Origin: a virus
Strand: one strand, 5' to 3'
Virus genome (UHGV): UHGV-1794847
Length of the DNA: 21,029 bases
Both the position numbers and the translations under genes were made by a program. Of the stretch, positions 2,136 through 17,266 are shown in pieces (within the stretch, counting starts at the first letter, position 1; each line of letters opens with the position of its first letter). Under the pieces are notes generated by a model. That model did no database searches and was not told where the DNA came from. It saw nothing but the letters and a program-made list of their open reading frames with translations.

Positions 2136-3428
2136 CTACAACAATGACGGCACTCGTTGAGTTTCAAGTGGGTCACTGACATTGATGCCTGTGTATGCAA
2201 CAAGTCGTTGTATTGGGCCAAGCACGAGTTTTTCGAACATGAGTCGCTTATTCATTGGTGGCACATCTGGCATGTACTTAGGCGTTGGCATTTCACCTGG
2301 CGCAAAGCCAAATGCATCGCAATATTGACGAGAACCAATTGGGATATTTGACAAATCTGACTTTGCTCTATCGACGAAATAGTAGAACACTCTACCGCCT
2401 TCAATCAATGTATATCGTGTTTCCAATCCATGAGCTTTTACAAGTGCGTTATGGTATGCACAAGCCCTGTACTGAGGCAGTACGCCTTTTGCTAACTGCC
2501 ATTCGCCATCATAGCTTAGCACATAGTCATGATACTTGTTTGCATTGACATATGCACAAAGTTTCTCCAAGTCTTGCTCGGCTTCAAAGCGTTTCCATAA
2601 TTTCTGTATGAGCTTTGGATATGTCGCAGAAGTCAATTCACCTCTGAACATTTTCTTGAATGCATAATCAAGCATTTGCCTAACAAGCATTGATGAGCCT
2701 GTTTGAATAAGTTCGATGCCTTTGCCTTGAATGTGCTCAGTAGGGTCTTCGAATACTCGACCATCTACATATATTTGAGCCTTTAAGTACTTTTTCTTTT
2801 GGGCAAATAATGCAGTGTCAGAAATCGTTTCGAGGTCAAATAGCAAAATTGAATTGCCATGACGTTTTGCGAGGTCTGCTGCATATGCCCCATTGAATAA
2901 TTCTTCCATACGATATTTGAATATCGCAAGAATCAAGTCATACCAATTTTTGCCTATGTAGCCAATTGATTTGACAGTTGGCTCAAAGTGAATGTACAAA
3001 GAGTCTGTGTCAATATACAACACTTTGTCTTCATAGGGTTCTTGCTTTGGCGACACAGACAAATCAAAATTGCCCTTCAATTGTGGGTCATTACGCAGCT
3101 TTTCATGCAATTCATAATCACACCACCACTTATTGTTAAGATAGTCATTTGCTACTCGTTCACCAAAGTGAATGAAGTTGCGGCCTTCAGCAGTAATTGA
3201 TTCTGCAACAGCCATATTAAAGAAGTGATAGAAACGATTGCTTGTAGCGCCATATATTGAGTTTCGACAACATTTTGCTGAGACTTGTAGTCCTGCATGC
3301 TTTAGTGATTCTTGCATTGCAAAATCTCTCAATTCAAATAGACGTTCAGTAGACAACTGACTCAAATCACCAGTCAAATCTACTCCATCTATTTCAATTT
3401 TTGACATATCTATCTGAGCTTCTGCCAT
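2136..3428 (-). CDS. Family-B DNA polymerase, C-terminal part (motif B, motif C, thumb)
   Basis: Motif B KCCRNSIYG verified at 3249..3275 (K-x3-NS-x-YG) and motif C YIDTDS at 3000..3017 (YGDTDS-type). Stop TAG at 2136..2138. Start set to ATG at 3426..3428; the track's 3518 start is a TTG codon, and an alternative ATG exists at 3459..3461. Confidence 0.85.
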   Translation of the reverse strand: MAEAQIDMSKIEIDGVDLTGDLSQLSTERLFELRDFAMQESLKHAGLQVSAKCCRNSIYGATSNRFYHFFNMAVAESITAEGRNFIHFGERVANDYLNNKWWCDYELHEKLRNDPQLKGNFDLSVSPKQEPYEDKVLYIDTDSLYIHFEPTVKSIGYIGKNWYDLILAIFKYRMEELFNGAYAADLAKRHGNSILLFDLETISDTALFAQKKKYLKAQIYVDGRVFEDPTEHIQGKGIELIQTGSSMLVRQMLDYAFKKMFRGELTSATYPKLIQKLWKRFEAEQDLEKLCAYVNANKYHDYVLSYDGEWQLAKGVLPQYRACAYHNALVKAHGLETRYTLIEGGRVFYYFVDRAKSDLSNIPIGSRQYCDAFGFAPGEMPTPKYMPDVPPMNKRLMFEKLVLGPIQRLVAYTGINVSDPLETQRVPSLL

Positions 3429-3459: not shown

Positions 3460-3496
3460 ATGCAAAACGAGTTTGCACTGTTTTGATACAACGACA

Positions 3497-4459
3497 CTAA
3501 ACTTTTACATGACCACAATCAAACACAGGATAAAATTGCCGTTGTAGCATAGTATTTGTGTCAAAATTGCCATCAATAAGATGTTCGTGTGTGCGCCAAT
3601 TATGCCAATGTTTTTGAATTGTCTGCAAGTTATCTGATTTTTGTGGATTCAATGCAAAGTCTGTTGATAGCACAGGTTCATTGTTCAAATGCGCTTGTAT
3701 TGCTGCAATAACTGCTTCAACAGACATCCACTCAAATGCAGTCACACAAATAAAACCTGCACGCAATGCATCTTGAGTTTTGTAAAAGTGATATGTTGGA
3801 TGAGTTGCTGCGCATTTTGATGCATTTTTGACAAGTGCATCAAAGCTTTTTGCGCTGTTATGCGACACTGTTGGATTGATTTCTACTACGACATTGTCAT
3901 ATCGCAAATCATACAACTTTAAGCCTATTCTGTAGTCATATTCAAAATTTATGCCAAGACGTTCAAATAGCAATGCATGCCAACGTTCATTAAGTTTTGA
4001 CTGTATTTGACCAGATGCTGCTCTGCATTTTGCATGCATGCAAAAATACGGCACATCATATCGCTCTTCACATGTTTGACGCAACTTAGCAATGTTTGCA
4101 GGCCCAAGCTTGCCAAAATGCTTAAGCTTAGTTGCATTTGCTTTGTCAGTATTGCTTGGACCTGCTTTGCCAAAATGTTCAAGCTTTGTCGCATTCGCTT
4201 TGTCAGTATTGCCTGGTCCAAGCTTGCCAAAATGTTTAAGCTTAGTCTGCTTGCATTGCTCTGTTACATATGATAACTGCATATTGTGTTCTACACCATA
4301 TTTTCGCAACATTGCAATTCGCCTGATGTATTTTCTACGAATTTTGCTGTGCGACGTCTTTCTTGGTGCGTATCTAACATATGGTGTATTTGCAATCAAC
4401 TCATCTCGCTCGTTTTCAAGTTTAGCAATACGAGCATCAATCTCTTCTTTTGTCATCAT
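3497..4459 (-). CDS. Repeat-containing putative DNA-binding / homing-endonuclease-like protein, class unassigned
   Basis: ATG at 4457..4459. Three tandem 19-aa repeats (TKLKHFGKLGPGNTDKANA) encoded by a 57-bp DNA repeat; basic N-terminus. Sits between the two polymerase halves, where freestanding endonucleases typically reside. No GIY-YIG or HNH motif recognised; the motif LYDLRYDNVVVEINPTVSH is only loosely nuclease-like. Confidence 0.55.
   Translation of the reverse strand: MMTKEEIDARIAKLENERDELIANTPYVRYAPRKTSHSKIRRKYIRRIAMLRKYGVEHNMQLSYVTEQCKQTKLKHFGKLGPGNTDKANATKLEHFGKAGPSNTDKANATKLKHFGKLGPANIAKLRQTCEERYDVPYFCMHAKCRAASGQIQSKLNERWHALLFERLGINFEYDYRIGLKLYDLRYDNVVVEINPTVSHNSAKSFDALVKNASKCAATHPTYHFYKTQDALRAGFICVTAFEWMSVEAVIAAIQAHLNNEPVLSTDFALNPQKSDNLQTIQKHWHNWRTHEHLIDGNFDTNTMLQRQFYPVFDCGHVKV
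4101..4260 (-). repeat. 57-bp in-frame tandem repeat, about 2.8 copies, inside CDS 3497..4459
   Basis: Units starting near 4108, 4165 and 4222 (gcttgccaaaatgcttaagcttagttgcatttgctttgtcagtattgc and variants); period 57 = 19 codons. Confidence 0.8.
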
Positions 4460-4467
4460 AGCAATTC

Positions 4468-4501
4468 AAAAAATGCAGCAGCAGATGTTCTGCTGCTGCA
4501 T
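4468..4501 (-). terminator. Intrinsic terminator between the SSB-like gene and the endonuclease-like gene
   Basis: Perfect 12-bp stem atgcagcagcag (4473..4484) / ctgctgctgcat (4490..4501), loop atgtt, preceded on plus by an A-run 4468..4472 (a T-run after the hairpin on the minus strand). It ends about 10 nt from the next ATG at 4459. Confidence 0.6.
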
Positions 4502-4543
4502 CGGCAGGTATCTTCACATGTGTTTGAGTTGATTACGATGTGA

Positions 4544-6695: not shown

Positions 6696-8201
6696 TTACA
6701 ATTTGATTGCACCTCTACGAGCAAGCTCTTCTTCAATCAATCTAACATGATTGTTAGCATACCAAAATTGCAATTTTTTGTGATAATTGCGAATGTCGCC
6801 AAGCTGTTCTTGAGTTTCTTTATACATTGAAGGCTCTCTATTGTCATACAGACAATTATTGACAGACACAAAGTAATTTGGGTCTGCTTTGTAATGCTCG
6901 ATTTCATCAGGATTTGTCAAACGTCTAATAAAGTTGTCTGGTGAAATATTCGCCGAGCGCATACTTGACGGATACAACGAGTTTGCATCAACACAGACAA
7001 CCATACGAGCCCAATGGTTAAATGGCTGCTTAACAAAGCCGCCCTCAAATGAATGTACAACATTCTCCGGACCGCCTTGAGCGCATACAACTTTACCGCC
7101 ATATTTGTTGTACAAATATGTCATCATGACGCCCTCAGATTGCTTAACTGGTCCTTGACAGTGATTCATGTCAATATTTGTCATATTTGACAATGACATT
7201 ACATTTGATATCAAGTCAGTTTTTGCAGCAATCATCGCATTGACCATCGTATCGACAGCATTATATGCAATGAACGTGCATGGATGATACAAATACAGCT
7301 CTTTAAGTGTGCAATCATAGGGCAGCTTACCTACGCCAAACATACGATGTGCAATATAGTCAAGTCGCAATGACTCTTTTTGCCACACTGAATAGTCGTA
7401 TGTGTCCATGAGTTGCATGTAGTCATCAATGTACTTGTGATATGGCATGCCATTGCCCCAGACAGTTCTGCCAACTGGAGATGCCAATGCTAAATCAATA
7501 TTGTGCATTGCGCATCGATTTTTGATATAGATGCTATCGAAGCCATTGATGTTCCAACCTGTCAATGCAGGAATGTTTTTGAAGAGCTTAGTCACCCAAA
7601 AATGCAACAATTCATGCTCATTTGCATGTTGAAAGATTTTGACAGTCGGACGCTCTTTCAAATATGCAGCAAAGCAATGCTGACCCATGTACTCTTGAAT
7701 GATGTTATTGACAAACTCAAATGCATCGTCCAGTGTTGGGTTTTGTTTGCCACAGCTTTTGCGCAAATCATCGTCATTCAACAAGTCAACAGTTGTCTGA
7801 ATGACACAATTACATTGCTCATCACATGTACTTATTGCATTAATGGGCATTTCAGCTTTGTCAGGCTTTGGAAAGCCATTGCCAATTTCAGTCTCAATAT
7901 CGTAAAAGTACAACTTTGGTCTACGATAAGCAAACAATTCAGCTTTGTCAGCTTCAGGCAATTCAAATAAGAATTGCAGTAAGTCAAATTGATTGAATCG
8001 CTTTGCTGTAACTCGAGTTACTGGCAATTTGCGCCAATCTTGAATATCTGCATATTGCGGCTCTACATGGTCTGATATTTGCCATACTGGAAATTGATAT
8101 GGCTGTTCACAGACAGGATATGTTTTAATATCAATGCCACCTTGCTCATTAACGTATGAAACTTCAATGCCATGTGACAAATATGCTACATCGACAATCA
8201 T
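6696..8201 (-). CDS. Family-B DNA polymerase, N-terminal part (3'-5' exonuclease domain plus motif A)
   Basis: Exo I FYDIETE (about 7893..7901), Exo II-like WNINGFD, Exo III-like YNAVD, and motif A DANSLYPS verified at 6966..6989. Ends with TAA at 6696..6698 about 100 aa after motif A, before any motif B. Start set to ATG 8199..8201; the track's 8237 start is TTG. Confidence 0.9.
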   Translation of the reverse strand: MIVDVAYLSHGIEVSYVNEQGGIDIKTYPVCEQPYQFPVWQISDHVEPQYADIQDWRKLPVTRVTAKRFNQFDLLQFLFELPEADKAELFAYRRPKLYFYDIETEIGNGFPKPDKAEMPINAISTCDEQCNCVIQTTVDLLNDDDLRKSCGKQNPTLDDAFEFVNNIIQEYMGQHCFAAYLKERPTVKIFQHANEHELLHFWVTKLFKNIPALTGWNINGFDSIYIKNRCAMHNIDLALASPVGRTVWGNGMPYHKYIDDYMQLMDTYDYSVWQKESLRLDYIAHRMFGVGKLPYDCTLKELYLYHPCTFIAYNAVDTMVNAMIAAKTDLISNVMSLSNMTNIDMNHCQGPVKQSEGVMMTYLYNKYGGKVVCAQGGPENVVHSFEGGFVKQPFNHWARMVVCVDANSLYPSSMRSANISPDNFIRRLTNPDEIEHYKADPNYFVSVNNCLYDNREPSMYKETQEQLGDIRNYHKKLQFWYANNHVRLIEEELARRGAIKL

Positions 8202-8212
8202 ATTATTATCTT

Positions 8213-8623
8213 TTAGAATAGAGATATTGTACAACAATTTGATTCAGGTTGCCATTCTACAATATGCGCATCAAAGTGTTTGTTAAGCCAATGTGCAAGT
8301 ATGTGTCTATGACAAAATGCAGATGGTCTGCACCAGCATAACAGTACAATGTCTCGTTCACCAGCAAGAAGCTTTATGCGATGCAGCATCAAACTTATCT
8401 GTGACAATGCAGCGTCAAGTTTTGCAGTGTATTGCTCTGCATATTGTGCATTGTCAAGCAAGCCTACTTTATGCAAACGAACAAGTGACATGTAATCAGG
8501 CATGACGTCAGTCCATGTAAAATCTGCTATGAAGCCCTTAGGTTTTGTTGCAGATACTTGAACAAGAAATGCGTTATCAGGCAGATGCCTGCATGCATAA
8601 TATGAAGTCAAGATTCTTGTCAT
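8213..8623 (-). CDS. DUF488-like protein
   Basis: ATG at 8621..8623, overlapping the upstream stop as ATGA. C-terminal RDIVLLCWCRPSAFCHRHILAHWL resembles the conserved LLC..E....CHR.l.a..L block of DUF488 (YeaO-like) proteins, recalled from memory. Confidence 0.5.
   Translation of the reverse strand: MTRILTSYYACRHLPDNAFLVQVSATKPKGFIADFTWTDVMPDYMSLVRLHKVGLLDNAQYAEQYTAKLDAALSQISLMLHRIKLLAGERDIVLLCWCRPSAFCHRHILAHWLNKHFDAHIVEWQPESNCCTISLF
8225..8235 (-). promoter_or_regulatory. Conserved GTTGTACAATA element, 23 nt upstream of the polymerase N-part ATG
   Basis: Plus tattgtacaac at 8225..8235; same 11-mer as at 3449..3459 and 10317..10327. Confidence 0.35.
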
Positions 8624-9543
8624 TCTACAGTAATTGTTGCAAGTTTGTTAATTGGCTGTATGAACACATCAAAGCTTTTAACAGTGCCAAACGCATTTCG
8701 TTTAACTGCATATAACATTGTAGTGTTCACATCATGCTTTGCATAGCGAGTTTCAATGACTTGACTGATGTAGCCTTTTGAATCTCGAATGTATTCTATG
8801 CTTGTAGCAATTTTGTTTGCTTTGATAGAGTTTACTGTAATCAATGCGCCATTCTGACCATATGCATATTGCATTGTTGCTGTAGATGGCTTTGCAGCAT
8901 TCACACTTAACTGCTGAATGACTTGCATTTTGCGACCATGCGAATCATAGTAATATGTGAATGTGCATGGAAACTTGCCAACCAAACTGTTCAAATGACG
9001 CAACTGCTCATAATGATAGCTGAACTGCACTACACTACTATTAGATTCACAAATGCTGCTTGGTCTGTAGTAGCCATTGAAGCACCCATACTGAATTGTG
9101 TATGTTTCAAAATGACCTCTACGATACAAACTAAGCAAACTAAGCATAGTCGTAGCCTCATCAACATGCAAGAACTTGATGTCTGCGCATGCATTGCTCT
9201 TGGCATAATCAGCTGCATTCCACTTATCAACGACTTTCCAAGAGTAGCATTTGATGCTTTGATTGCGCTCATTGACAAAGTGTATGCCATTTGACTGCAC
9301 CTTTACAATGTCATAGCAATTCAAATGACCATTACTGTCAATGAATTTTTGCAGCCAGTTTAAGGCCATAATATTTGTTGCAAATGTCTGTGCAAATGCA
9401 ATTTGACCATCTGCAAATGCTGTTGTGTATGTCTTGTTCTTATCGTAGATTGGCAATGTTGCATCTGCATATGATGATGCTACAAATGCATAGCCAATCA
9501 CATTATTCTCAGAACTTAAATTAGAGTGTCTTAACTGTTCCAT
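8620..9543 (-). CDS. Hypothetical protein (307 aa)
   Basis: ATG at 9541..9543; long ORF with stop overlapping the next start; no recognisable motifs. Confidence 0.65.
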   Translation of the reverse strand: MEQLRHSNLSSENNVIGYAFVASSYADATLPIYDKNKTYTTAFADGQIAFAQTFATNIMALNWLQKFIDSNGHLNCYDIVKVQSNGIHFVNERNQSIKCYSWKVVDKWNAADYAKSNACADIKFLHVDEATTMLSLLSLYRRGHFETYTIQYGCFNGYYRPSSICESNSSVVQFSYHYEQLRHLNSLVGKFPCTFTYYYDSHGRKMQVIQQLSVNAAKPSTATMQYAYGQNGALITVNSIKANKIATSIEYIRDSKGYISQVIETRYAKHDVNTTMLYAVKRNAFGTVKSFDVFIQPINKLATITVE

Positions 9544-9752
9544 GTGTCATTATGCTTACGACGTTCAATTTCTGCCTCAACGTCATCAATGTCATGATTT
9601 ATTTGAGCAAGACGAATGTCATTGTCATACTCTTTAAGTAGCTGTTCAAACAAATCTTCTTTGAACTGCTTCAAACGTTCATTTGAAAATGCTCTTACGT
9701 TCATATCAAAGTCTACATTCTTTTTCAAGTTTCTTGTCATTGATGACAACAT
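9531..9752 (-). CDS. Hypothetical small charged protein (73 aa)
   Basis: ATG at 9750..9752 (alternative ATG at 9738..9740); overlaps the end of the upstream gene by 47 nt, so the start is uncertain. Confidence 0.4.
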   Translation of the reverse strand: MLSSMTRNLKKNVDFDMNVRAFSNERLKQFKEDLFEQLLKEYDNDIRLAQINHDIDDVEAEIERRKHNDTWNS

Positions 9753-10275
9753 TCAACAAATAGTTGACATGTTTGCATGAATGACGATACATAAAGCCTG
9801 GGCAATCACAATACGCTTGCATTGATTCAGGATATAACACAAGTACATGTGAATTGCCTCGTGAGCCAAAGACTTTGTACTTGACCGGTACTGTCGGCAA
9901 GCCAATCAAATTATTGACGTCTTGTGAATGTCTGATATTATGCAGCTGTTTAAGTGAAACCCAGTGTTCTGCGGCTTCAGTAGCAGACATCAAATTAATG
10001 CCAAATGCTTGTTTATATTGCTGTTTGCAAAACAACTGCCATTTGTGTGCATATACAGAGTTCTTTTGCAGCATCTCTTTATGCAACAAATACTCTTCAA
10101 TATATCTTGGCTGCCAACGAGTTGACCATGACGCAAATTCAGGCACAAACTGAATGTCTTCAAGAGTTGTGCCTGCTGGTACAGAATGCCAAGCATCACC
10201 TGTGCATACATAAGTGCCTGTTGTTGTTACAATTATTGCCGGATTACATTTGCCAATGATTTGAATCTTGTCCAT
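9706..10275 (-). CDS. Hypothetical protein with SWIM-like zinc-finger motif
   Basis: ATG at 10273..10275. C-terminal CDCPGFMYRHSCKH fits the C-x-C-x(n)-C-x-H SWIM pattern. Confidence 0.55.
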   Translation of the reverse strand: MDKIQIIGKCNPAIIVTTTGTYVCTGDAWHSVPAGTTLEDIQFVPEFASWSTRWQPRYIEEYLLHKEMLQKNSVYAHKWQLFCKQQYKQAFGINLMSATEAAEHWVSLKQLHNIRHSQDVNNLIGLPTVPVKYKVFGSRGNSHVLVLYPESMQAYCDCPGFMYRHSCKHVNYLLNVVINDKKLEKECRL

Positions 10276-10316
10276 CTTATTTATGATTTGATGTCTTGTA
10301 TTATATTATATGTTGA

Positions 10317-10327
10317 TATTGTACAAC
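10317..10327 (-). promoter_or_regulatory. Conserved GTTGTACAATA element, 41 nt upstream of the ATG of gene 9706..10275
   Basis: Plus tattgtacaac at 10317..10327, followed on the sense strand by ATATAATATAAT (A/T-rich). Confidence 0.35.
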
Positions 10328-10335
10328 GCTAAGTG

Positions 10336-10515
10336 TCATTTTGCACTGTCGTCATCAATTTTTATTGATGGCGCAGCAATCAATGCAAGCAAACACCAGT
10401 CACTTTTAGTAACTGCACAAGCAACTGCTATTGCAGCAAAGAAGCTTGCATAAATGATTGCTGCAGCAAGCCAACTTGTTTTATCGCTACATTTGTTGTT
10501 CGATGAGTTCTCCAT
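10336..10515 (-). CDS. Candidate small hydrophobic protein (59 aa), below the ORF-track length threshold
   Basis: Manual translation: ATG 10513..10515, TGA 10336..10338, giving MENSSNNKCSDKTSWLAAAIIYASFFAAIAVACAVTKSDWCLLALIAAPSIKIDDDSAK with one clear hydrophobic helix. Overlaps the 3' end of the upstream gene by 29 nt. Confidence 0.25.
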   Translation of the reverse strand: MENSSNNKCSDKTSWLAAAIIYASFFAAIAVACAVTKSDWCLLALIAAPSIKIDDDSAK

Positions 10516-10738
10516 TGATAATGTCTTGTCTAATGTACACGCCCTTTAACGTTGGGTGCTGCTTTATGAGTGTCATATGACCGATTATATGCACTTTGTG
10601 ATTTTTAGGCAACACAATGCCATGCTCAAATACAGCATGAGTGTCTGTAAATCGCAGCAATTTTACTGGAGGTGTAACACAATTGACAAAGTATAGTTTG
10701 CCAATTTGCGCATCTGCTGCTTTGATTTTGTCTTTCAT
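10487..10738 (-). CDS. Hypothetical protein (83 aa from ATG)
   Basis: The track start 10777 is TTG; ATG at 10736..10738 lies 2 nt after the stop of the upstream gene (10741..10743), consistent with tight packing. Confidence 0.45.
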   Translation of the reverse strand: MKDKIKAADAQIGKLYFVNCVTPPVKLLRFTDTHAVFEHGIVLPKNHKVHIIGHMTLIKQHPTLKGVYIRQDIINGELIEQQM

Positions 10739-10740
10739 TG

Positions 10741-11025
10741 TTATGCAATTTGAGTGCTGGCATATTTTACTAGCCAAGCATACACGTCATAGTGAAAAAT
10801 CTTCACATAATGCGGCATGCTAAAGCATTCACCACAACTGCAATGAGCATCAATGTTACCTGTAATGACATTGTACATTAGCCTAACGATTTCATATGAC
10901 TCAGAGCCCATTTGACAATGCTGCTTAATGTCAATTGTTCTGCCAAATCGTTTGCGAAACCATATAACAAGTTGTGCATACAAATCATCAATGTTTGATG
11001 TCATTGAGCAGTCTTTCATATGCAT
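10741..11025 (-). CDS. Hypothetical Cys/His-containing protein (94 aa)
   Basis: ATG at 11023..11025 (alternatives at 11019 and 11004); contains HCSCGECFSMPHY; overlaps the upstream gene end. Confidence 0.45.
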   Translation of the reverse strand: MHMKDCSMTSNIDDLYAQLVIWFRKRFGRTIDIKQHCQMGSESYEIVRLMYNVITGNIDAHCSCGECFSMPHYVKIFHYDVYAWLVKYASTQIA

Positions 11026-11491
11026 ACGGATAATCAGGATTTGTTAGCAAACGCTTAATAAACTGTTTGAGCTCAAATTTGCTGTCAAATGATTGAACTG
11101 CAGGCCTGCCAACAAATTTGAGATATTTGATTGCTTCTTTAGCAAATTTGCCTGCAGAATTACTGTCAAGCATTATGTATGACGTCAGAGTATCAATCAT
11201 AAAAATGCTTCGCCAACTTGGCGCGCCACAAATGACTTCTACTGCATTCCTGTTAGGAATGCGTCGTACACGTACATTAAGAATGGTCATCAAGTCATTC
11301 CAAGACGCATCTCTGCATGTACATGGCTGCAAATTCCACTGACGTGTCATATGACACCAATATAGAATTGTGTTTGCAGGCAATTCTGCTCGTTCAGCTT
11401 TGCTAAGCTTATGGCCATCTGCTGCATAGACTGCTTGTCTGCTAATTTGAACAGAGCTAAGCTTGCCTCGTTTGTGCGTAACTGCTACCAT
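10988..11491 (-). CDS. Hypothetical protein (167 aa)
   Basis: ATG at 11489..11491, overlapping the upstream stop by 7 nt; no motif recognised with confidence. Confidence 0.6.
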   Translation of the reverse strand: MVAVTHKRGKLSSVQISRQAVYAADGHKLSKAERAELPANTILYWCHMTRQWNLQPCTCRDASWNDLMTILNVRVRRIPNRNAVEVICGAPSWRSIFMIDTLTSYIMLDSNSAGKFAKEAIKYLKFVGRPAVQSFDSKFELKQFIKRLLTNPDYPYAYERLLNDIKH

Positions 11492-11883
11492 GTCTTTGCG
11501 TAGTTAATGAGCTGCTTAACATCAAAGAATGCAGGATTGTCGTACGCAGACTTGTTGTAGTCGAAGATGACACAAATGTTGTTGCCAAGTAATCTGCAGT
11601 TGCCATAGATTTTTGCAATCTTTGTGTTACGTTTCTTGTCAACGCAAATATTGATTGCTCGTACTTTCATGACATCAAGCCACTGACCAGTGTATTCATT
11701 CTGAACTGCAGATGGTTCACAAGTTGGCAATGCAAGCATATATGTCTTACCACTGTCAAGTCGTTCAATAACTTCGCCATGATATCGAGGCTCAAGAATG
11801 TTGATGCCATTGACATCAGGATTTGCTGTTCGTAATGCAACTTTCAATTCTTCTGTAGTTGCGTTGTAATTTATTCTGTACAT
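11485..11883 (-). CDS. Hypothetical protein (132 aa)
   Basis: ATG at 11881..11883; compact spacing with neighbours. Confidence 0.6.
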   Translation of the reverse strand: MYRINYNATTEELKVALRTANPDVNGINILEPRYHGEVIERLDSGKTYMLALPTCEPSAVQNEYTGQWLDVMKVRAINICVDKKRNTKIAKIYGNCRLLGNNICVIFDYNKSAYDNPAFFDVKQLINYAKTW

Positions 11884-11898
11884 ATCGATTGATATTTG

Positions 11899-12129
11899 TT
11901 ATTCGAAATCCGTGTCGTCTACATTTTCATTAGGGTCATAGATGAGCCATACAAATGCTGCACAGCCAAGTATGAATAAGCCTCCGCCAATGATTGTCGT
12001 AAAAACCGAACCAATCCAATGCTTCATAATATCACCGAGCGGATTCAATGTTTCATAGCCAATCATAAATGCAACAAATACAACTATTATTGCTGCTATT
12101 GCTTTGTTTGTTGTGTTTCGTTTTATCAT
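11899..12129 (-). CDS. Small membrane protein, two predicted TM helices, acidic C-terminus
   Basis: The track start 12210 is GTG; first ATG at 12127..12129 gives MIKRNTTNKAIAAIIVVFVAFMIGY...IGGGLFILGCAAFVWLIYDPNENVDDTDFE. Confidence 0.5.
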   Translation of the reverse strand: MIKRNTTNKAIAAIIVVFVAFMIGYETLNPLGDIMKHWIGSVFTTIIGGGLFILGCAAFVWLIYDPNENVDDTDFE

Positions 12130-12252
12130 TATTGTAGAGGTTTTAGTGTTCTGTATATTATGTTCGAATATATGAGGACATATATTATATATAGATATAT
12201 TACAACACACAAATCATTTTTGCACACTTTTATAAACCAAAATTTCACAAAA

Positions 12253-12561
12253 ATGCAAACACAAGAAGTTTTAACGGATGTCATTGACATGTCACAATCA
12301 GCTCGCAATTATGCGCTTGGCGCTGTATGTGACGCAGAAGAGCATGAAGATGCTGTTGAAGCAGTTATCGAAGATTACATGCAAGGCGCAAGAGAAATGT
12401 ACGTCAAGTTGACTACATTTGTCAATGTCAATGATGCAGTGCCTGCAAATAACTACCCAGTCATTGCAAAGCTTGCAAATGATTCATATACAATTGCAAC
12501 ATTTGAAAATGACATGTGGTCAGTTGACCATATTGTTGCGTGGCGCAAGTTGCACATTTAA
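12253..12561 (+). CDS. Small acidic protein (102 aa); only plus-strand gene in the window
   Basis: ATG at 12253..12255 after an AT-rich divergent intergenic region; TAA at 12559..12561 followed by a terminator. About 17 D/E versus 6 K/R. The track's longer 12019 start would translate the AT-rich intergenic region and the antisense of the neighbouring gene. Confidence 0.55.
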   Translation: MQTQEVLTDVIDMSQSARNYALGAVCDAEEHEDAVEAVIEDYMQGAREMYVKLTTFVNVNDAVPANNYPVIAKLANDSYTIATFENDMWSVDHIVAWRKLHI

Positions 12562-12575
12562 GATTATAGCACAAC

Positions 12576-12607
12576 AAAAAAGTCCGAGCATTGCTCGGAC
12601 TTTTTTG
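12576..12607. terminator. Bidirectional intrinsic terminator between convergent genes
   Basis: Stem agtccgag (12581..12588) / ctcggact (12594..12601) with 5-nt loop, flanked by A-run 12576..12580 and T-run 12601..12606, so it reads as hairpin plus U-run on both strands. Confidence 0.75.
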
Positions 12608-12622
12608 TTGTGCACTGATTGT

Positions 12623-15600
12623 CTATCGAACAATCGATGTAATTGATGCTACTGGTATCGTACCAATGATTGATGTAGTTGAGCGGAAGTCTGCATAGAC
12701 TTTAATGTCAAATGTGAACTCCTTGCCACCAATGTAGCATATGAAATTCATTGTTTTTGTGTATGACAACTTGTTTTGTTGAGTATTGCTGTCAATGTCA
12801 GATGAACCAACTGCATCAGTCATACGAGCCTGGAACAACAATGGTATCAGCAATGCATTGTTTTCACCAGGCTTAACTACATAAGCTGCAGAATCAGTAC
12901 TATTCGAAACTTGCATTTGATTGACTGTTGTCGGATTCAACAGCAAGAATGCGCCACGACTATTTGCGCCGACTGCATAGACGTCGTTGTCTGTGAATGC
13001 GCATTTAGGCGCGTTTTCTGCAGTAAGTTCAAGTGGCAGAATCTGCTGATACTTTGACTTAATAACTGAATTGAACTTAGCAAGCTCTGCAAATGCAGCA
13101 GTCAAAGCAGCTTTTGTTTGTTCATTCTTGTTTGCTGAGTATGCAATCCATGCTGGATGCTGAACAGACATCAGATTATATGCGTCTGGTGATACTGTCG
13201 ACTTCAATGCAATCGCTTCATAATCATCGTCATTCTTATGAACAAATTTGCGATTTGCTGCTTGTGCAGAAGTGTCAATGTTTTGTGTTTCTACAGTAGA
13301 CGATGATGGTGTTTCTGCAGCAACATACAGCTTTTCTGTGCCTGCTACGTTTTTCAAACCAGCATACAATGTTTGACCCATGTATTGACGAGTGCCATAC
13401 GGTGCTAAGATGTCATTGCTGTCATATGCATCGCTGTTAAGCACTACAGGCACGTCATAGACATCTGCAAAATCTTGTAGTTTGTCTGTAATATGCTGTG
13501 ATAAGTCGCCATGATATCGTGGATACAATGAGATGTTTTCTGCACCAATATTGTAGAACTTCAGCCAATATTGTCGAGTAAGCACTTTGCCATAGTTGTC
13601 TGCTGAAGTAATGTCAAACTTATCTGCATAAGTGCCAGCAAACAAAACATTGCTCGAGCCATTCAGAATTTCTGTTTGATTGCCCTCGTCATCTACGATT
13701 GCAACTCGAAGCATTGAACCTTGATTCAGAATGATGTCTTTGAGCTGCGCAACTTCATTGCTAAGTGACAGCAGTTTTTCATATGTTGTCACTTTTGCAA
13801 GTTCTGATGTGAAGAAGCCTGATGCAATGTTTTGAGCATTGTGAGCATAGTAGATGTTGTTTTCTGAGAATGCATCTGCAATATGCTTGATAAGTCCTTT
13901 GTTCTCAAGCATATTTTCAAGAGCCACATTTTGCTTATCAATTGCAAGTTCATCTTTAAGTGTGACGAACATTGCAGAAGCTGCAAGACTTTCTGGGAAC
14001 TGAATGCTTACGATGTTTGACCACTCAGACTCATTGAGCACGTTTGGATAGCCTGCTTCACCAATTGCTTTGACACGGAACTGAACAATCTCATTAGCAG
14101 AAATTGGAATTTCAAGCTGATTGCATGAGATTGCATCAATGGATTCTGAATTGATTGGTTCCCATTGAATGCTACCATCGACAATGATTTTGCGACGAAG
14201 TGGCGTAAATACTTCATTCCATGTGCTAAATGCTGCTGTCGTAATTGTGCCTGCTGCGTTTTCGATGTCAAATGTGTCTGCCTTTGCTACTGTGCCATTC
14301 AATGACGCATATCTGTACTGCACCTTGAACTGCACAATGTTTTGTGCAGCAGTAAATCTACTGATTGCGGGGTCTTGTACTGGCAAGAAGCCTCGAACTC
14401 TAAACTTCGGATTATATAATGCGTCATATGCAGCGCCATTGATATTCAGCATCTCATCAATGATATTTGTGAGTGTTTGCAGTCGTTCTGCTCTTTGCTG
14501 AGTCAACGTAACATATTGCGTAGATGCTTTTTGACGTTCAACGTCATTCTTGAAATTATTTGTATTGAGCTTTGACATCACAGATGCGATATCAGAGTCA
14601 AGTACCGACATTTCTTGCTGAACTGCTCGTTTTTGATTGTACAATGACAAAATTCGAGATTTGTCAGTGTTGTCAATCAAATGTGTGTTAAGCTGAATAA
14701 CTTTGAATGATTCTGCAGACAATTGCAAACGATTTGGCTTAATTGCATATTGCGATGGCGCAAGCATATCAGTAGTCAATGCTGCAATATAAGCGCCAAT
14801 TGATGCGTCGCCATGTGACAACATATACGAGTTTGCATTGACAAGCTCATTTGTTGCAGTACGAATTGTAAGTGTTGCAGTGTCAATCAAAACTGCTGGG
14901 CTGTACTGAGCTACTGTGTTATATGCATCATGCACAGGCGACAAGAACAACACGAATTTTTCAGAATGTCGAAGTGGTACTTCAACGACTTTTCGAACAA
15001 TGGGCTCTACAAAGACGAGGTCAGTGACTTCTACATTCAATGCATTCAAGCCTGCAGTACGCTGCAGTATACATGTTTGCGACAGTTTGTCAATCGAAAC
15101 AATTTGCAGTAATACTGAACCAGTCGGGTCTGATAATGTGTCACCGACTTTCAATGTCAGTGAACCGGCAACCTTTGCGTCAATTGCATCATATACAATG
15201 CTGTCAAGTTTGACAGCAATTGTGCCATTGTTCGCATTTTGCTTCTTGAGAATTTTGAAGCTGCCACTTGATGCTGCTCGTCGTGGTCGCAAATTAACTG
15301 TGAAGTCTTCAAGAGTATAGTCATCATCAGTATGCCAGCCATGCGCATCAATTTCAGCAAGCAATGCAGCATGGCTCATTTCAATGTCTGTTTGTGCCAC
15401 AATTTGCTGCAATGCAGCAAACATGGCATCTGAGCATATGTACTTTGTAACTTGACATTGTTTAAGATATGATGATGCTTGACCAGTCACATCAATTTGC
15501 ACATGCATACCAAGCGCTGTTGTGCGTTCAAACATATCATTGCCAAGTGCGACAACATTGTTATCTTCTGCTATCGTGCCCTGCAAAGTCTTCAATGTCT

Positions 15601-15928
15601 CAGGCTGATTCAGCAAGCTCATATGCACCATTGTACGCATATTGTTGTTTGCATCTACAAGTTGTGCATACAACTGCTCACCATTATTTAAGCCTGTCAA
15701 GACTTTCATATTTTGCTCAATGACAGCCATGCGACGTTGAATTGACGCAAAGCTTGGCACAGTAATGCTTGTTGTGCTTCTATCATCATTTGTCAATGTT
15801 ATTGTGACTGTATCTTCTGATGATGACACTGCAGCTTGCAACACATCAAGATATTGCAGACTGTTATTGTACAGTTGCTTGATGTCTGCCAGCAATTGTT
15901 GCATTGCATTTGTTGAAACTTCTGACAT
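12623..15928 (-). CDS. Large hypothetical protein (about 1101 aa), probable virion structural protein
   Basis: The track start 15976 is TTG; first ATG at 15926..15928 (MSEVSTNAMQQLL). Beta-rich S/T/N/V composition with a central predicted coiled-coil segment (SRILSLYNQKRAVQQEMSVLDSDIASVMSKL...); no ATPase or enzymatic motif seen. Confidence 0.8.
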   Translation of the reverse strand: MSEVSTNAMQQLLADIKQLYNNSLQYLDVLQAAVSSSEDTVTITLTNDDRSTTSITVPSFASIQRRMAVIEQNMKVLTGLNNGEQLYAQLVDANNNMRTMVHMSLLNQPETLKTLQGTIAEDNNVVALGNDMFERTTALGMHVQIDVTGQASSYLKQCQVTKYICSDAMFAALQQIVAQTDIEMSHAALLAEIDAHGWHTDDDYTLEDFTVNLRPRRAASSGSFKILKKQNANNGTIAVKLDSIVYDAIDAKVAGSLTLKVGDTLSDPTGSVLLQIVSIDKLSQTCILQRTAGLNALNVEVTDLVFVEPIVRKVVEVPLRHSEKFVLFLSPVHDAYNTVAQYSPAVLIDTATLTIRTATNELVNANSYMLSHGDASIGAYIAALTTDMLAPSQYAIKPNRLQLSAESFKVIQLNTHLIDNTDKSRILSLYNQKRAVQQEMSVLDSDIASVMSKLNTNNFKNDVERQKASTQYVTLTQQRAERLQTLTNIIDEMLNINGAAYDALYNPKFRVRGFLPVQDPAISRFTAAQNIVQFKVQYRYASLNGTVAKADTFDIENAAGTITTAAFSTWNEVFTPLRRKIIVDGSIQWEPINSESIDAISCNQLEIPISANEIVQFRVKAIGEAGYPNVLNESEWSNIVSIQFPESLAASAMFVTLKDELAIDKQNVALENMLENKGLIKHIADAFSENNIYYAHNAQNIASGFFTSELAKVTTYEKLLSLSNEVAQLKDIILNQGSMLRVAIVDDEGNQTEILNGSSNVLFAGTYADKFDITSADNYGKVLTRQYWLKFYNIGAENISLYPRYHGDLSQHITDKLQDFADVYDVPVVLNSDAYDSNDILAPYGTRQYMGQTLYAGLKNVAGTEKLYVAAETPSSSTVETQNIDTSAQAANRKFVHKNDDDYEAIALKSTVSPDAYNLMSVQHPAWIAYSANKNEQTKAALTAAFAELAKFNSVIKSKYQQILPLELTAENAPKCAFTDNDVYAVGANSRGAFLLLNPTTVNQMQVSNSTDSAAYVVKPGENNALLIPLLFQARMTDAVGSSDIDSNTQQNKLSYTKTMNFICYIGGKEFTFDIKVYADFRSTTSIIGTIPVASITSIVR

Positions 15929-15953
15929 ATGCTTAAATGTAATTTGTTCTTGT

Positions 15954-16005
15954 TTTTGATGCAAGATGCAAAACAATTAAAATTGTTTTGATGCAAAATG
16001 CAAAA
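15954..16005 (-). repeat. Two 20-bp direct repeats TTTTGATGCAA(G/A)ATGCAAAA, 32 bp apart, upstream of the large gene
   Basis: Copies at 15954..15973 and 15986..16005 with one mismatch; sense-strand reading TTTTGCAT(C/T)TTGCATCAAAA, 26 to 77 nt upstream of ATG 15928. Confidence 0.6.
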
Positions 16006-16979: not shown

Positions 16980-17003
16980 GCTTGATAACGTTGAACTTTC
17001 ATG
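16965..17003 (-). repeat. 16-bp direct repeat acgttgaactttcatg duplicating the start region of gene 16086..16979
   Basis: Copies at 16965..16980 and 16988..17003; the upstream copy creates a second ATG (17000..17002) opening an 8-codon ORF MKVQRYQA whose TGA (16976..16978) overlaps the main ATG. Confidence 0.7.
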
Positions 17004-17188
17004 TGTCTTGTATATGGTCTACGGTGTGTGAAACACTCTACGGTATGATGTTGAAATTGACTGCAAGCAACAATGATGTGACATCTTCGCCCAATAGAAA
17101 TGAACCTGTAGCAAAACCAACGGCATCAAGTTGATTTGTAAACGTGCTCAGCGGCAATGTCAGTATGATGTAGCCTAACTTAACAGAG

Positions 17189-17198
17189 CCCCCCCCCC
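17189..17198. repeat. Homopolymeric C10 tract (G10 on minus strand) in the 287-bp intergenic region
   Basis: cccccccccc at 17189..17198 within otherwise AT-rich non-coding sequence 16980..17266. Confidence 0.8.
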
Positions 17199-17266
17199 GT
17201 GTTTTGCGAGCGATAGTGGTCTTGAGTTACATGTGACATATATGAAATGTTTGTTTGAATATGTAT

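Follow-up and report, generated by a model that had tools for sequence, protein, structure and literature searches.

What is the function of a tightly packed run of genes that lies between the replication genes and the virion genes of a large phage? This question is raised by positions 8213–12129 of the virus genome UHGV-1794847, which we studied in a stretch of 21,029 nucleotides (nt), in the following called the window. A preliminary description, made from the letters of the sequence without database searches, had reported a block of ten or eleven small open reading frames (ORFs) at this place and had named it as the most likely site of unannotated function in the window, since host-takeover and anti-defence genes tend to be found in such regions of phage genomes. 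We suggest that the region holds a cassette of accessory genes specific to this lineage, which sits in a hyperplastic slot of a T4-like myovirus of ~175 kb and would be read as two units before the late genes. On balance this appears to us the probable interpretation. The block is thereby an ordinary phage accessory region and not a new type of system.

The genes of the block

The region is filled by ten consecutive ORFs on the minus strand, which were named A to J, from the first to the last to be transcribed, and whose starts were refined from related sequences. Neighbouring ORFs overlap by 4–35 nt or are 1–15 nt apart, and the sole real gap, of 60 nt, is found between F and G. The number and the position of the ORFs had been given correctly; the label “small” does not suit ORF I, which has 307 amino acids (aa). 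The location between the replication and the structural region is also as described, with a split PolB, a dUTPase-dCD gene and MazG on one side and the neck, baseplate and 1117-aa genes on the other. All substantial ORFs of the window are encoded by the minus strand and a single gene (12253–12561) by the plus strand; the features discussed below are on the minus strand unless another strand is given.

The block was compared with four close relatives (L001–L004, ~95% identical) and with a diverged contig of 3.6 kb (L005). The frames of A to J are open in all four close relatives, with the exceptions of C and of the first ATG of H. The ratio of non-synonymous to synonymous differences (pN/pS; Nei–Gojobori counts, pooled over three relatives) lies between 0.04 and 0.40 for the ORFs of the block, namely 0.04 for D, 0.09 for A, 0.12 for J, 0.13 for G and for I, 0.14 for E, 0.15 for H, 0.23 for B and 0.40 for F. 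The polymerase yields 0.10 by the same counting. The gene order of L005 matches that of the block for eight ORFs with amino acid identities of 44% (A), 36% (B), 50% (C), 53% (D), 51% (E), 69% (G), 37% (I) and 56% (J), and F and H are missing from this contig. Each protein of the block belongs to a cluster of 51–58 sequence variants which are found on many contigs of up to 181 kb, and the frames remain open across dozens of variants. When A to J were compared with one another no paralogy inside the block was found. Thus all ten ORFs are real protein-coding genes under purifying selection, and the lineage-specific ORF F with its highest pN/pS is the weakest gene call.

A plastic slot between conserved flanks

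Judged from its gp13-like neck and baseplate genes, its split PolB and its relatives, the phage is a myovirus of ~175 kb that is only distantly T4-like. According to PolB the nearest isolates are the Chryseobacterium phages MA9V-1 and MA9V-2 (36% identity); jumbo phages of Tenacibaculum and Sphingomonas come next. Two contigs of ~175 kb with ~95% identity are present in IMG/VR, and further relatives are found in ENA and Logan assemblies. In GenBank phages megablast with the whole window returned nothing, and tblastn gave no match for I and none at E≤1 for the concatenated proteins A–H. To judge from these relatives, and as no Shine–Dalgarno-like motif was found ahead of any of the 24 genes of the window, the phage probably infects a member of the Bacteroidota.

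The isolates MA9V-1 and MA9V-2 have kept the split PolB, and also counterparts of the 275-aa gene described below and of the 1117-aa protein, the latter with ~1100 aa and 31% identity over 1109 aa. Between the ~1100-aa protein and PolB, MA9V-1 carries nine and MA9V-2 seven small ORFs, none of which resembles A to J. In the Tenacibaculum phage PTm1 there is no such block beside the polymerase. Since the flanks are conserved in MA9V-1/2 and the content is wholly different, we regard the slot as plastic and its genes as accessory. The content also changes within the lineage: F and H are present in some members and missing from others, and C is disrupted in some natural variants, an indirect hint that genes of the block may be dispensable.

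The hyperplastic regions of the T4 superfamily form the plastic periphery of the T4-like genome architecture. The block resembles them in that small, mostly orphan ORFs are wedged between conserved core modules and that the flanks are syntenic whereas the content differs. Furthermore, its ORFs lie close together on one strand and appear to be transcribed ahead of the late genes. On the other hand, no ORF of the block is homologous to genes of the T4 hyperplastic regions, the promoter-like element described below is unlike the T4 early, middle and late consensus, and the phage itself is remote from T4, with a PolB that is only 36% identical to the nearest isolate and a probable host among the Bacteroidota.

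Transcription of the block

A motif of 26 nt, GTTGTAnnATATCnAnATATAATATA, occurs exactly twice in the window and not once in 100 shuffled sequences. Both copies are on the minus strand in the orientation of the genes and occupy the two non-coding gaps of the block. The first copy (GTTGTAATATATCTATATATAATATA, 12181–12206) is found 52 nt upstream of the start codon of A, within a divergent AT-rich region of 123 nt that separates A from the plus-strand gene, and the second (GTTGTACAATATCAACATATAATATA, 10302–10327) 27 nt upstream of the start codon of G, where a variant of it is kept in L005. In two relatives of 175 kb there are four to five exact copies each, and every one of them is situated 13–54 nt ahead of an ORF starting with ATG and is preceded by GCAAA at a distance of 11–12 nt. 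The copy at A has GCAAA 12 nt upstream and, as at other copies, a CCTCTAC leader just before the ATG. The general layout is therefore GCAAA-N11-12-GTTGTA-N10-TATAATA. Several genes behind the motif (loci L008, L023, L027, L030 and L032) share CCTCTAC 4–5 nt before the ATG, which is possibly a phage-specific leader signal; together with the missing Shine–Dalgarno motifs this is compatible with a host of the Bacteroidota type. One of the copies in the genomes of the relatives precedes a gene for a Metallophos/AAA_23 (Mre11/Rad50-like) nuclease.

The spacing of the motif does not fit a −35/−10 pair of the sigma-70 type. Sigma-70-like promoters are not enriched in the window over shuffled sequences, and the T4-type late promoter TATAAATA does not occur in it. 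T4 middle promoters consist of an activator box near −30 and a −10 element. The motif is similar to these promoters by analogy only, as a GTTGTA box is located 10–11 nt from a TATAAT-like element and a canonical −35 box is lacking, and as it is found ahead of genes of DNA metabolism and of small accessory genes. Nevertheless, it is unrelated to the MotA box and has the additional conserved GCAAA further upstream. No homologue of MotA or AsiA was seen here, and no search was aimed at either protein.

Upstream the block is delimited by a perfect palindrome with arms of 22 nt (12569–12613, both strands; inverted repeat 100% complementary) that is flanked by A and T runs and is a putative bidirectional intrinsic terminator. 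It lies at the shared end of the 1117-aa gene and the convergent 102-aa ORF on the plus strand and thus separates the block from the 1117-aa gene. Downstream of the block the first strong terminator of the minus strand is a stem of 14 bp with a T-run at 4472–4502. Between G and this site no strong terminator was found on the minus strand, and those inside the block are weak. Because of this, G to J are probably co-transcribed with the N-terminal half of PolB and the genes of nucleotide metabolism.

Thus, we suggest two units, whose timing and extent we infer from these elements. The first would comprise A to F behind its own copy of the phage-specific promoter-like element. The second would start at the other copy of the motif with G to J, continue into the N-terminal half of PolB, the dCTP-deaminase/dUTPase-like gene, MazG and one further gene and stop at 4472–4502. 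As the motif also precedes the Mre11/Rad50-like gene elsewhere in the relatives and as TATAAATA is absent, the arrangement suggests that the block would be expressed before the late genes.

The proteins of the proposed second unit

The clearest family assignment is that of ORF J (136 aa, 8213–8623), a DUF488-N3a protein of the rhodanese-phosphatase superfamily. It matches PF22751 with 38.8 bits (cut-off 27, E=1.4e-9), and there are weaker overlapping Pfam matches to DUF4326 (24.3 bits, cut-off 25) and DUF488 (22.0 bits, cut-off 22.2). In PHROGs the best match is phrog_2450 (E=7e-18), and one member of the J cluster is named “YeaO (DUF488 family)” in IMG. A search against the sequences of the PDB gave none at E≤1. 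Standalone homologues of ~130 aa are encoded by Ea35-70-like Erwinia phages, Salmonella and Escherichia phages of the genus Seoulvirus, Prevotella Lak megaphages and Pseudomonas phages. In the homologues of the jumbo phages, which are 27–29% identical, the residues C96, C98, P100, F103, C104, H105, R106 and H107 of the motif CxCxPxxFCHRH are invariant. In J the motif reads VLLC96-W-C98-R-P-S-A-F-C104-H-R-H, so that the loop with the active-site cysteine and the CHR element are retained. J is probably catalytically competent, since this Cys/His/Arg motif is invariant at less than 30% identity.

J shares with the DUF488-N3a family the score above the Pfam gathering cut-off and the Cys…CHR core, and with the phage members of this family the standalone form of ~130 aa and the occurrence in a large myovirus. 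It differs in being neither fused nor adjacent to Macro, NADAR or SLOG domains. RapZ-C, DUF488 and DUF4326 were reportedly united by Burroughs and Aravind in 2023 with the prediction of a role in the processing of DNA ends in virus–host conflict. We are aware of no protein of the N3a subclade whose activity has been demonstrated, and the role of the clade in virus–host conflict is a published computational prediction and not an experimental result. J would be a cysteine-dependent enzyme of the phosphoesterase type from the RapZ-C/DUF488/DUF4326 clade, which would most likely remove a phosphate from, or transfer it on, a nucleotide, an ADP-ribose derivative or a nucleic acid end. The processing of ribose-linked phosphates of ADP-ribose derivatives in viruses has been predicted for DUF4326, a sister family in the rhodanese-phosphatase superfamily (PMC9503650), and not for the N3a subclade to which J belongs.

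ORF G (189 aa, 9706–10275) is the most conserved gene of the block (69% identity to P0004 in L005). Its C-terminal part carries the SWIM-type signature C156-x-C158-x8-C167-x-H169, and the ligands C156-D-C158-x8-C167-K-H169 are invariant in P0003 (93% identical, alignment A2) as well as in P0004. The preliminary description had called the protein SWIM-like. The CxCx8CxH signature is indeed present and conserved and there is a match to PHROG 29279, “zinc-finger domain protein”, at E=9e-5, but the Pfam family SWIM (PF04434) is reached with only 14.6 bits (E=0.024) by G and with 15.5 bits (E=0.013) by the L005 homologue, below the cut-off of 19.6. The AlphaFold2 (AF2) model of G is of low confidence, with a predicted local distance difference test (pLDDT) of 54, and contains a predicted beta-beta-beta-alpha unit at residues 131–177. 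In the CxCxnCxH signature G agrees with the SWIM domain, and the predicted unit would be in line with it; in contrast to SWIM proteins it is not attached to an SNF2 helicase, a transposase or a kinase, and its N-terminal 130 residues have no known relatives. Sequence and profile searches of the PDB and a fold search with the model gave nothing significant, and a wider search for distant loci of G detected the same phage lineage only. Two loci from that search, L038 and L039, were rejected as false positives, as they are inside a terminase gene. G may be a SWIM zinc-finger protein which would bind nucleic acid or a partner protein.

ORF I (8620–9543) has repeats resembling YD/Rhs beta-hairpins over its C-terminal ~140 residues. 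An exhaustive search of 1.8 billion protein representatives returned its own lineage (95% and 37% identity) and three weak matches (P0006, P0007 and P0009; E=3e-4 to 1e-3), all of them RHS-repeat proteins. Among PDB sequences the Rhs protein 8h8a was matched at E=0.005, but once the diverged homologue is built into a profile the signal weakens to E=0.33; for this reason we do not call I a member of the Rhs family. Pfam RHS_repeat (PF05593) was not matched at E≤0.1, neither by I nor by its L005 homologue. The AF2 model has a pLDDT of 48 overall and of 60–73 over the hairpin array, and its best fold matches, teneurin, Rhs, OspA and MORN proteins, are all weak and none is convincing. YxYDxxG(R/x)-like hairpin motifs in the C-terminal half are a feature that I shares with the Rhs/YD proteins such as teneurins and the Rhs effectors of the type VI secretion system. 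However, I has about four to six hairpins as compared to dozens in the Rhs cocoon, and a Rhs core, a toxin domain or a closed cocoon were not found in it, only an array of ~120–140 residues. In shape I is equally similar to the single-layer sheets of MORN and OspA proteins as it is to Rhs. Three independent searches, of the PDB sequences, of the 1.8 billion representatives and of folds, thus gave a weak similarity to YD/Rhs proteins. The evidence hints at a protein with a YD-like beta-hairpin-repeat tail, and this tail could serve as a binding surface.

The remaining ORF of this unit, H, codes for an acidic helical protein (pI 4.8) of 57 aa (9531–9704) or 69 aa (9531–9740). It is lineage-specific, and the first ATG is ruled out in L001 by a stop at codon 4. 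For H as well as for B and E no relatives outside the lineage were detected with Pfam, PHROGs, NCBIfam and other searches.

The proteins of the proposed first unit

ORF A (76 aa, 11899–12129), the first gene of the block, codes for two hydrophobic helices and an acidic C-terminal tail, DPNENVDDTDFE. Its homologue in L005 has the same position, and the best PHROG match, “membrane protein”, is faint (E=0.07). In its small size, its two hydrophobic segments of the transmembrane type and its charged C-terminus the protein has the shape of a class II holin. The context does not fit a holin, as there is no lysis gene in the window and A is the first gene behind a motif which is common to genes of DNA metabolism. 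ORF B (132 aa, 11485–11883) is an orphan for which no match was found in Pfam, PHROGs, NCBIfam, PADLOC or the PDB, and ORF E (83 aa, 10487–10738; start at the ATG conserved in the alignment) likewise has no family match. ORF F (10336–10515) encodes a hydrophobic protein of 59 aa with a long hydrophobic helix and then a shorter hydrophobic segment; it is open in the four close relatives.

ORF C (167 aa, 10988–11491) is basic (pI 9.7) and has four conserved cysteines in its N-terminal half. The frame is shifted in L003 and L004, which have T6 in place of T5, and in L002 by a deletion of 1 nt at residue 145. In L005 a TAG replaces the tryptophan codon TGG at about residue 94. The gene is thus split at about residue 95 (region 11195–11225) by two lesions independent of each other, T5 to T6 and TGG to TAG, directly 3′ of a terminator-like hairpin, CGCCAAGTTGGCG, with a following T-run (11211–11223). 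An in-frame ATG just past the T-run is a possible start for the second half, and both halves are under purifying selection (pN/pS 0.08 and 0.15). Among the matches listed for the cluster of 51 members the form with 167 aa prevails, and the broken form is a minority of the variants. The splitting could be due to gene fission, to slippage at the T-run or to internal attenuation. A recoding of TAG at the in-frame stop of L005 was considered and rejected, as TAG, TGA and TAA all serve as genuine stops.

ORF D (92 aa, 10741–11019) is a Cys/His-containing and possibly zinc-binding protein with the lowest pN/pS of the block. The motifs HCQMG and SMPHYVK(I/L)FH are conserved between D and its L005 homologue, with one exchange of a cysteine for a histidine. 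In Pfam and PHROGs neither version has a family match, and the PDB search with D gave none. The conserved Cys/His positions, together with the Cys-to-His exchange in D, suggest that C and D bind metal. The first unit would accordingly supply the small membrane proteins A and F and the Cys/His-rich proteins C and D.

Flanking genes and further features

The exonuclease or N-terminal half of PolB (6696–8201) lies directly downstream of the block, and the C-terminal half (2136–3428) is found ~3.3 kb from it. Five genes are located between the two halves, a small ORF, the dCTP-deaminase/dUTPase-like gene, MazG, the 275-aa gene and a 320-aa DUF7487 gene. A split PolB with other intervening genes is also present in MA9V-1/2, and in phage PTm1 a split PolB is accompanied by an intein. 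In L001 and L002 only ~35 bp stand in place of a segment of ~1 kb (3461–4469) that contains the DUF7487 ORF (3497–4459), and L003 lacks this segment. The segment looks like a mobile insertion of the homing type just upstream of the C-terminal half of PolB; at the equivalent position MA9V-2 has a TnpB gene.

On the upstream side are the genes for a conserved protein of 1117 aa, a neck protein resembling T4 gp13 and a protein of the baseplate. The 1117-aa protein (12623–15976) has no Pfam domain, matches phrog_29329 (E=2.5e-155), is 31% identical to MA9V1_125 and has a pN/pS of 0.04. The position of its gene beside those for neck and baseplate makes a large virion protein probable. The gp13-like neck gene and its next neighbour are separated by a gene-free stretch of 287 nt (16980–17266) with a G10 run and a GC content above that of the surroundings; scans for Rfam families and tRNAs were empty, also in this stretch.

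The only gene on the plus strand (12253–12561) is situated just beyond the coordinates of the preliminary description and is divergent from A. It codes for an acidic protein of 102 aa (pI 4.3) without a family match, is open in L001–L004 with an in-frame indel of one codon, has a pN/pS of 0.18 and has been called as a gene in L003 and L004.

Possible roles of the block

When all ten ORFs and their L005 versions were searched against Pfam, PHROGs, NCBIfam and PADLOC, only J gave matches together with the weak ones of G. PDB sequence searches with B, C, D, E, G and J and profile searches with G and I returned nothing significant. PADLOC reported only partial matches (E=3e-4 to 8e-3) to models of candidate systems or of Cas proteins, and no significant defence or anti-defence family; a library dedicated to anti-defence proteins was not part of this search. 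According to the PHROG categories of A to J there is no host-takeover match, and the significant matches are “unknown” and “zinc-finger” only.

The inventory of the preliminary description is largely borne out by these searches: its DUF488-like protein is J, its two small membrane proteins are A and F, and its Cys/His-containing protein is D, to which C has to be added. The profile and structure searches it had proposed provided a family for J and a weak one for G, but the fold searches with I and G gave nothing significant. In both the window proteins and those of L005 no ORF can be assigned to a routine structural or replication family, so that the outcome named there as speaking against its proposal, namely that all ORFs are of this kind, is not what we found. 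Its view of the region as a site of unassigned accessory genes agrees with the plastic slot and the orphan ORFs; none of the ORFs could be linked to host takeover or anti-defence. An anti-defence role of the block is plausible, and we treat it, like the biochemical activities proposed above, as a prediction.

Several points weigh against the interpretation as an accessory cassette read in two units before the late genes. For seven of the ten proteins no homologue was detected beyond the lineage, so that any function given to them is a guess. The AF2 models of I and G are of low confidence and did not lead to significant fold matches, the SWIM and RHS assignments are under the Pfam thresholds, and the YD signal of I becomes weaker once the diverged homologue is part of the profile. 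In the searches above there is no significant match to a known anti-defence or defence family. In addition, the spacing of the motif is unlike that of sigma-70 promoters, and the −33/−7 consensus of the Bacteroidota is not matched either, so that we infer its function as a promoter from its position and recurrence, and the assignment of a host among the Bacteroidota relies solely on the relatives and the missing Shine–Dalgarno motifs.

The main rival explanation is that G to J are not conflict genes but accessory factors of replication and nucleotide metabolism, with J cleaning or modifying nucleotides or DNA ends, G acting as a DNA-binding accessory of the replisome and I as a scaffold. These genes are directly upstream of the N-terminal half of PolB with no terminator in between and appear to be co-transcribed with dUTPase/dCD and MazG; G has the top conservation of the block, and the motif is common with the Mre11/Rad50-like gene. 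However, MA9V-1/2 have the same split polymerase and a slot without homologues of G, I and J, and a polymerase of this type can therefore do without these genes. Moreover, the homologues of J in jumbo phages are found among unrelated hypothetical genes and not beside polymerases; two neighbourhoods were inspected, those of Erwinia phage Desertfox and Escherichia phage Lh1B, and in both the annotation is hypothetical for the homologue as well as for the genes around it. Thus, we consider this explanation unlikely, although it deserves to be taken seriously.

It is improbable that the block is a virion or lysis module, in which I would be a YD-repeat part of the virion or an adhesin, A a holin or membrane factor of the class II type and the other proteins assembly chaperones. 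The block does adjoin the neck, baseplate and 1117-aa genes on the same strand, A is small with two hydrophobic helices and a charged C-terminus, and proteins with beta-hairpin repeats are often surface or binding proteins. Nevertheless, a strong bidirectional terminator and a divergent gene lie between the block and the virion genes, no late promoter of the type TATAAATA is found in the window, there is neither an endolysin nearby nor a structural or lysis match in PHROGs, and MA9V-1/2 keep the virion genes but not the content of the block.

Equally doubtful is a more far-reaching proposal, according to which G, I and J together with H would form one functional unit, would be co-expressed with the split PolB and the dUTPase/MazG genes and would carry out an undescribed processing of DNA ends or nucleotides, for example, by removing a phosphate- or ADP-ribose-linked block which the host has installed on the replicating phage DNA. 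If this were true, large phages of the Bacteroidota would possess, in G, H, I and J, a new module for anti-defence or DNA modification. Finally, that some or all ORFs are chance non-coding frames in AT-rich intergenic DNA can practically be dismissed, as the high pN/pS of F, the lack of F and H in the diverged contig and the seven ORFs without database homologues beyond the lineage have to be set against a pN/pS far under 1 in every frame, eight collinear ORFs conserved at the protein level (36–69%), frames that are intact in dozens of variants, and a coding density with 4-nt overlaps of the ATGA type as in phage operons.

Implications for large phages

The current understanding of phage genomes is not overturned by this block. 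J is a compact conserved protein suited to a first biochemical characterization of the DUF488-N3a family, which is present in many jumbo phages (Lak, phiKZ-like, SPN3US-like and Ea35-70-like). With its recurrent copies, the promoter-like motif could mark out a temporal class of genes in the poorly studied phages of the Bacteroidota type. The slot can be found by its conserved flanks and can be mined for accessory genes in related phages. If the interpretation as an accessory cassette holds, the region would be one more plastic slot by which large phages carry fast-evolving genes.

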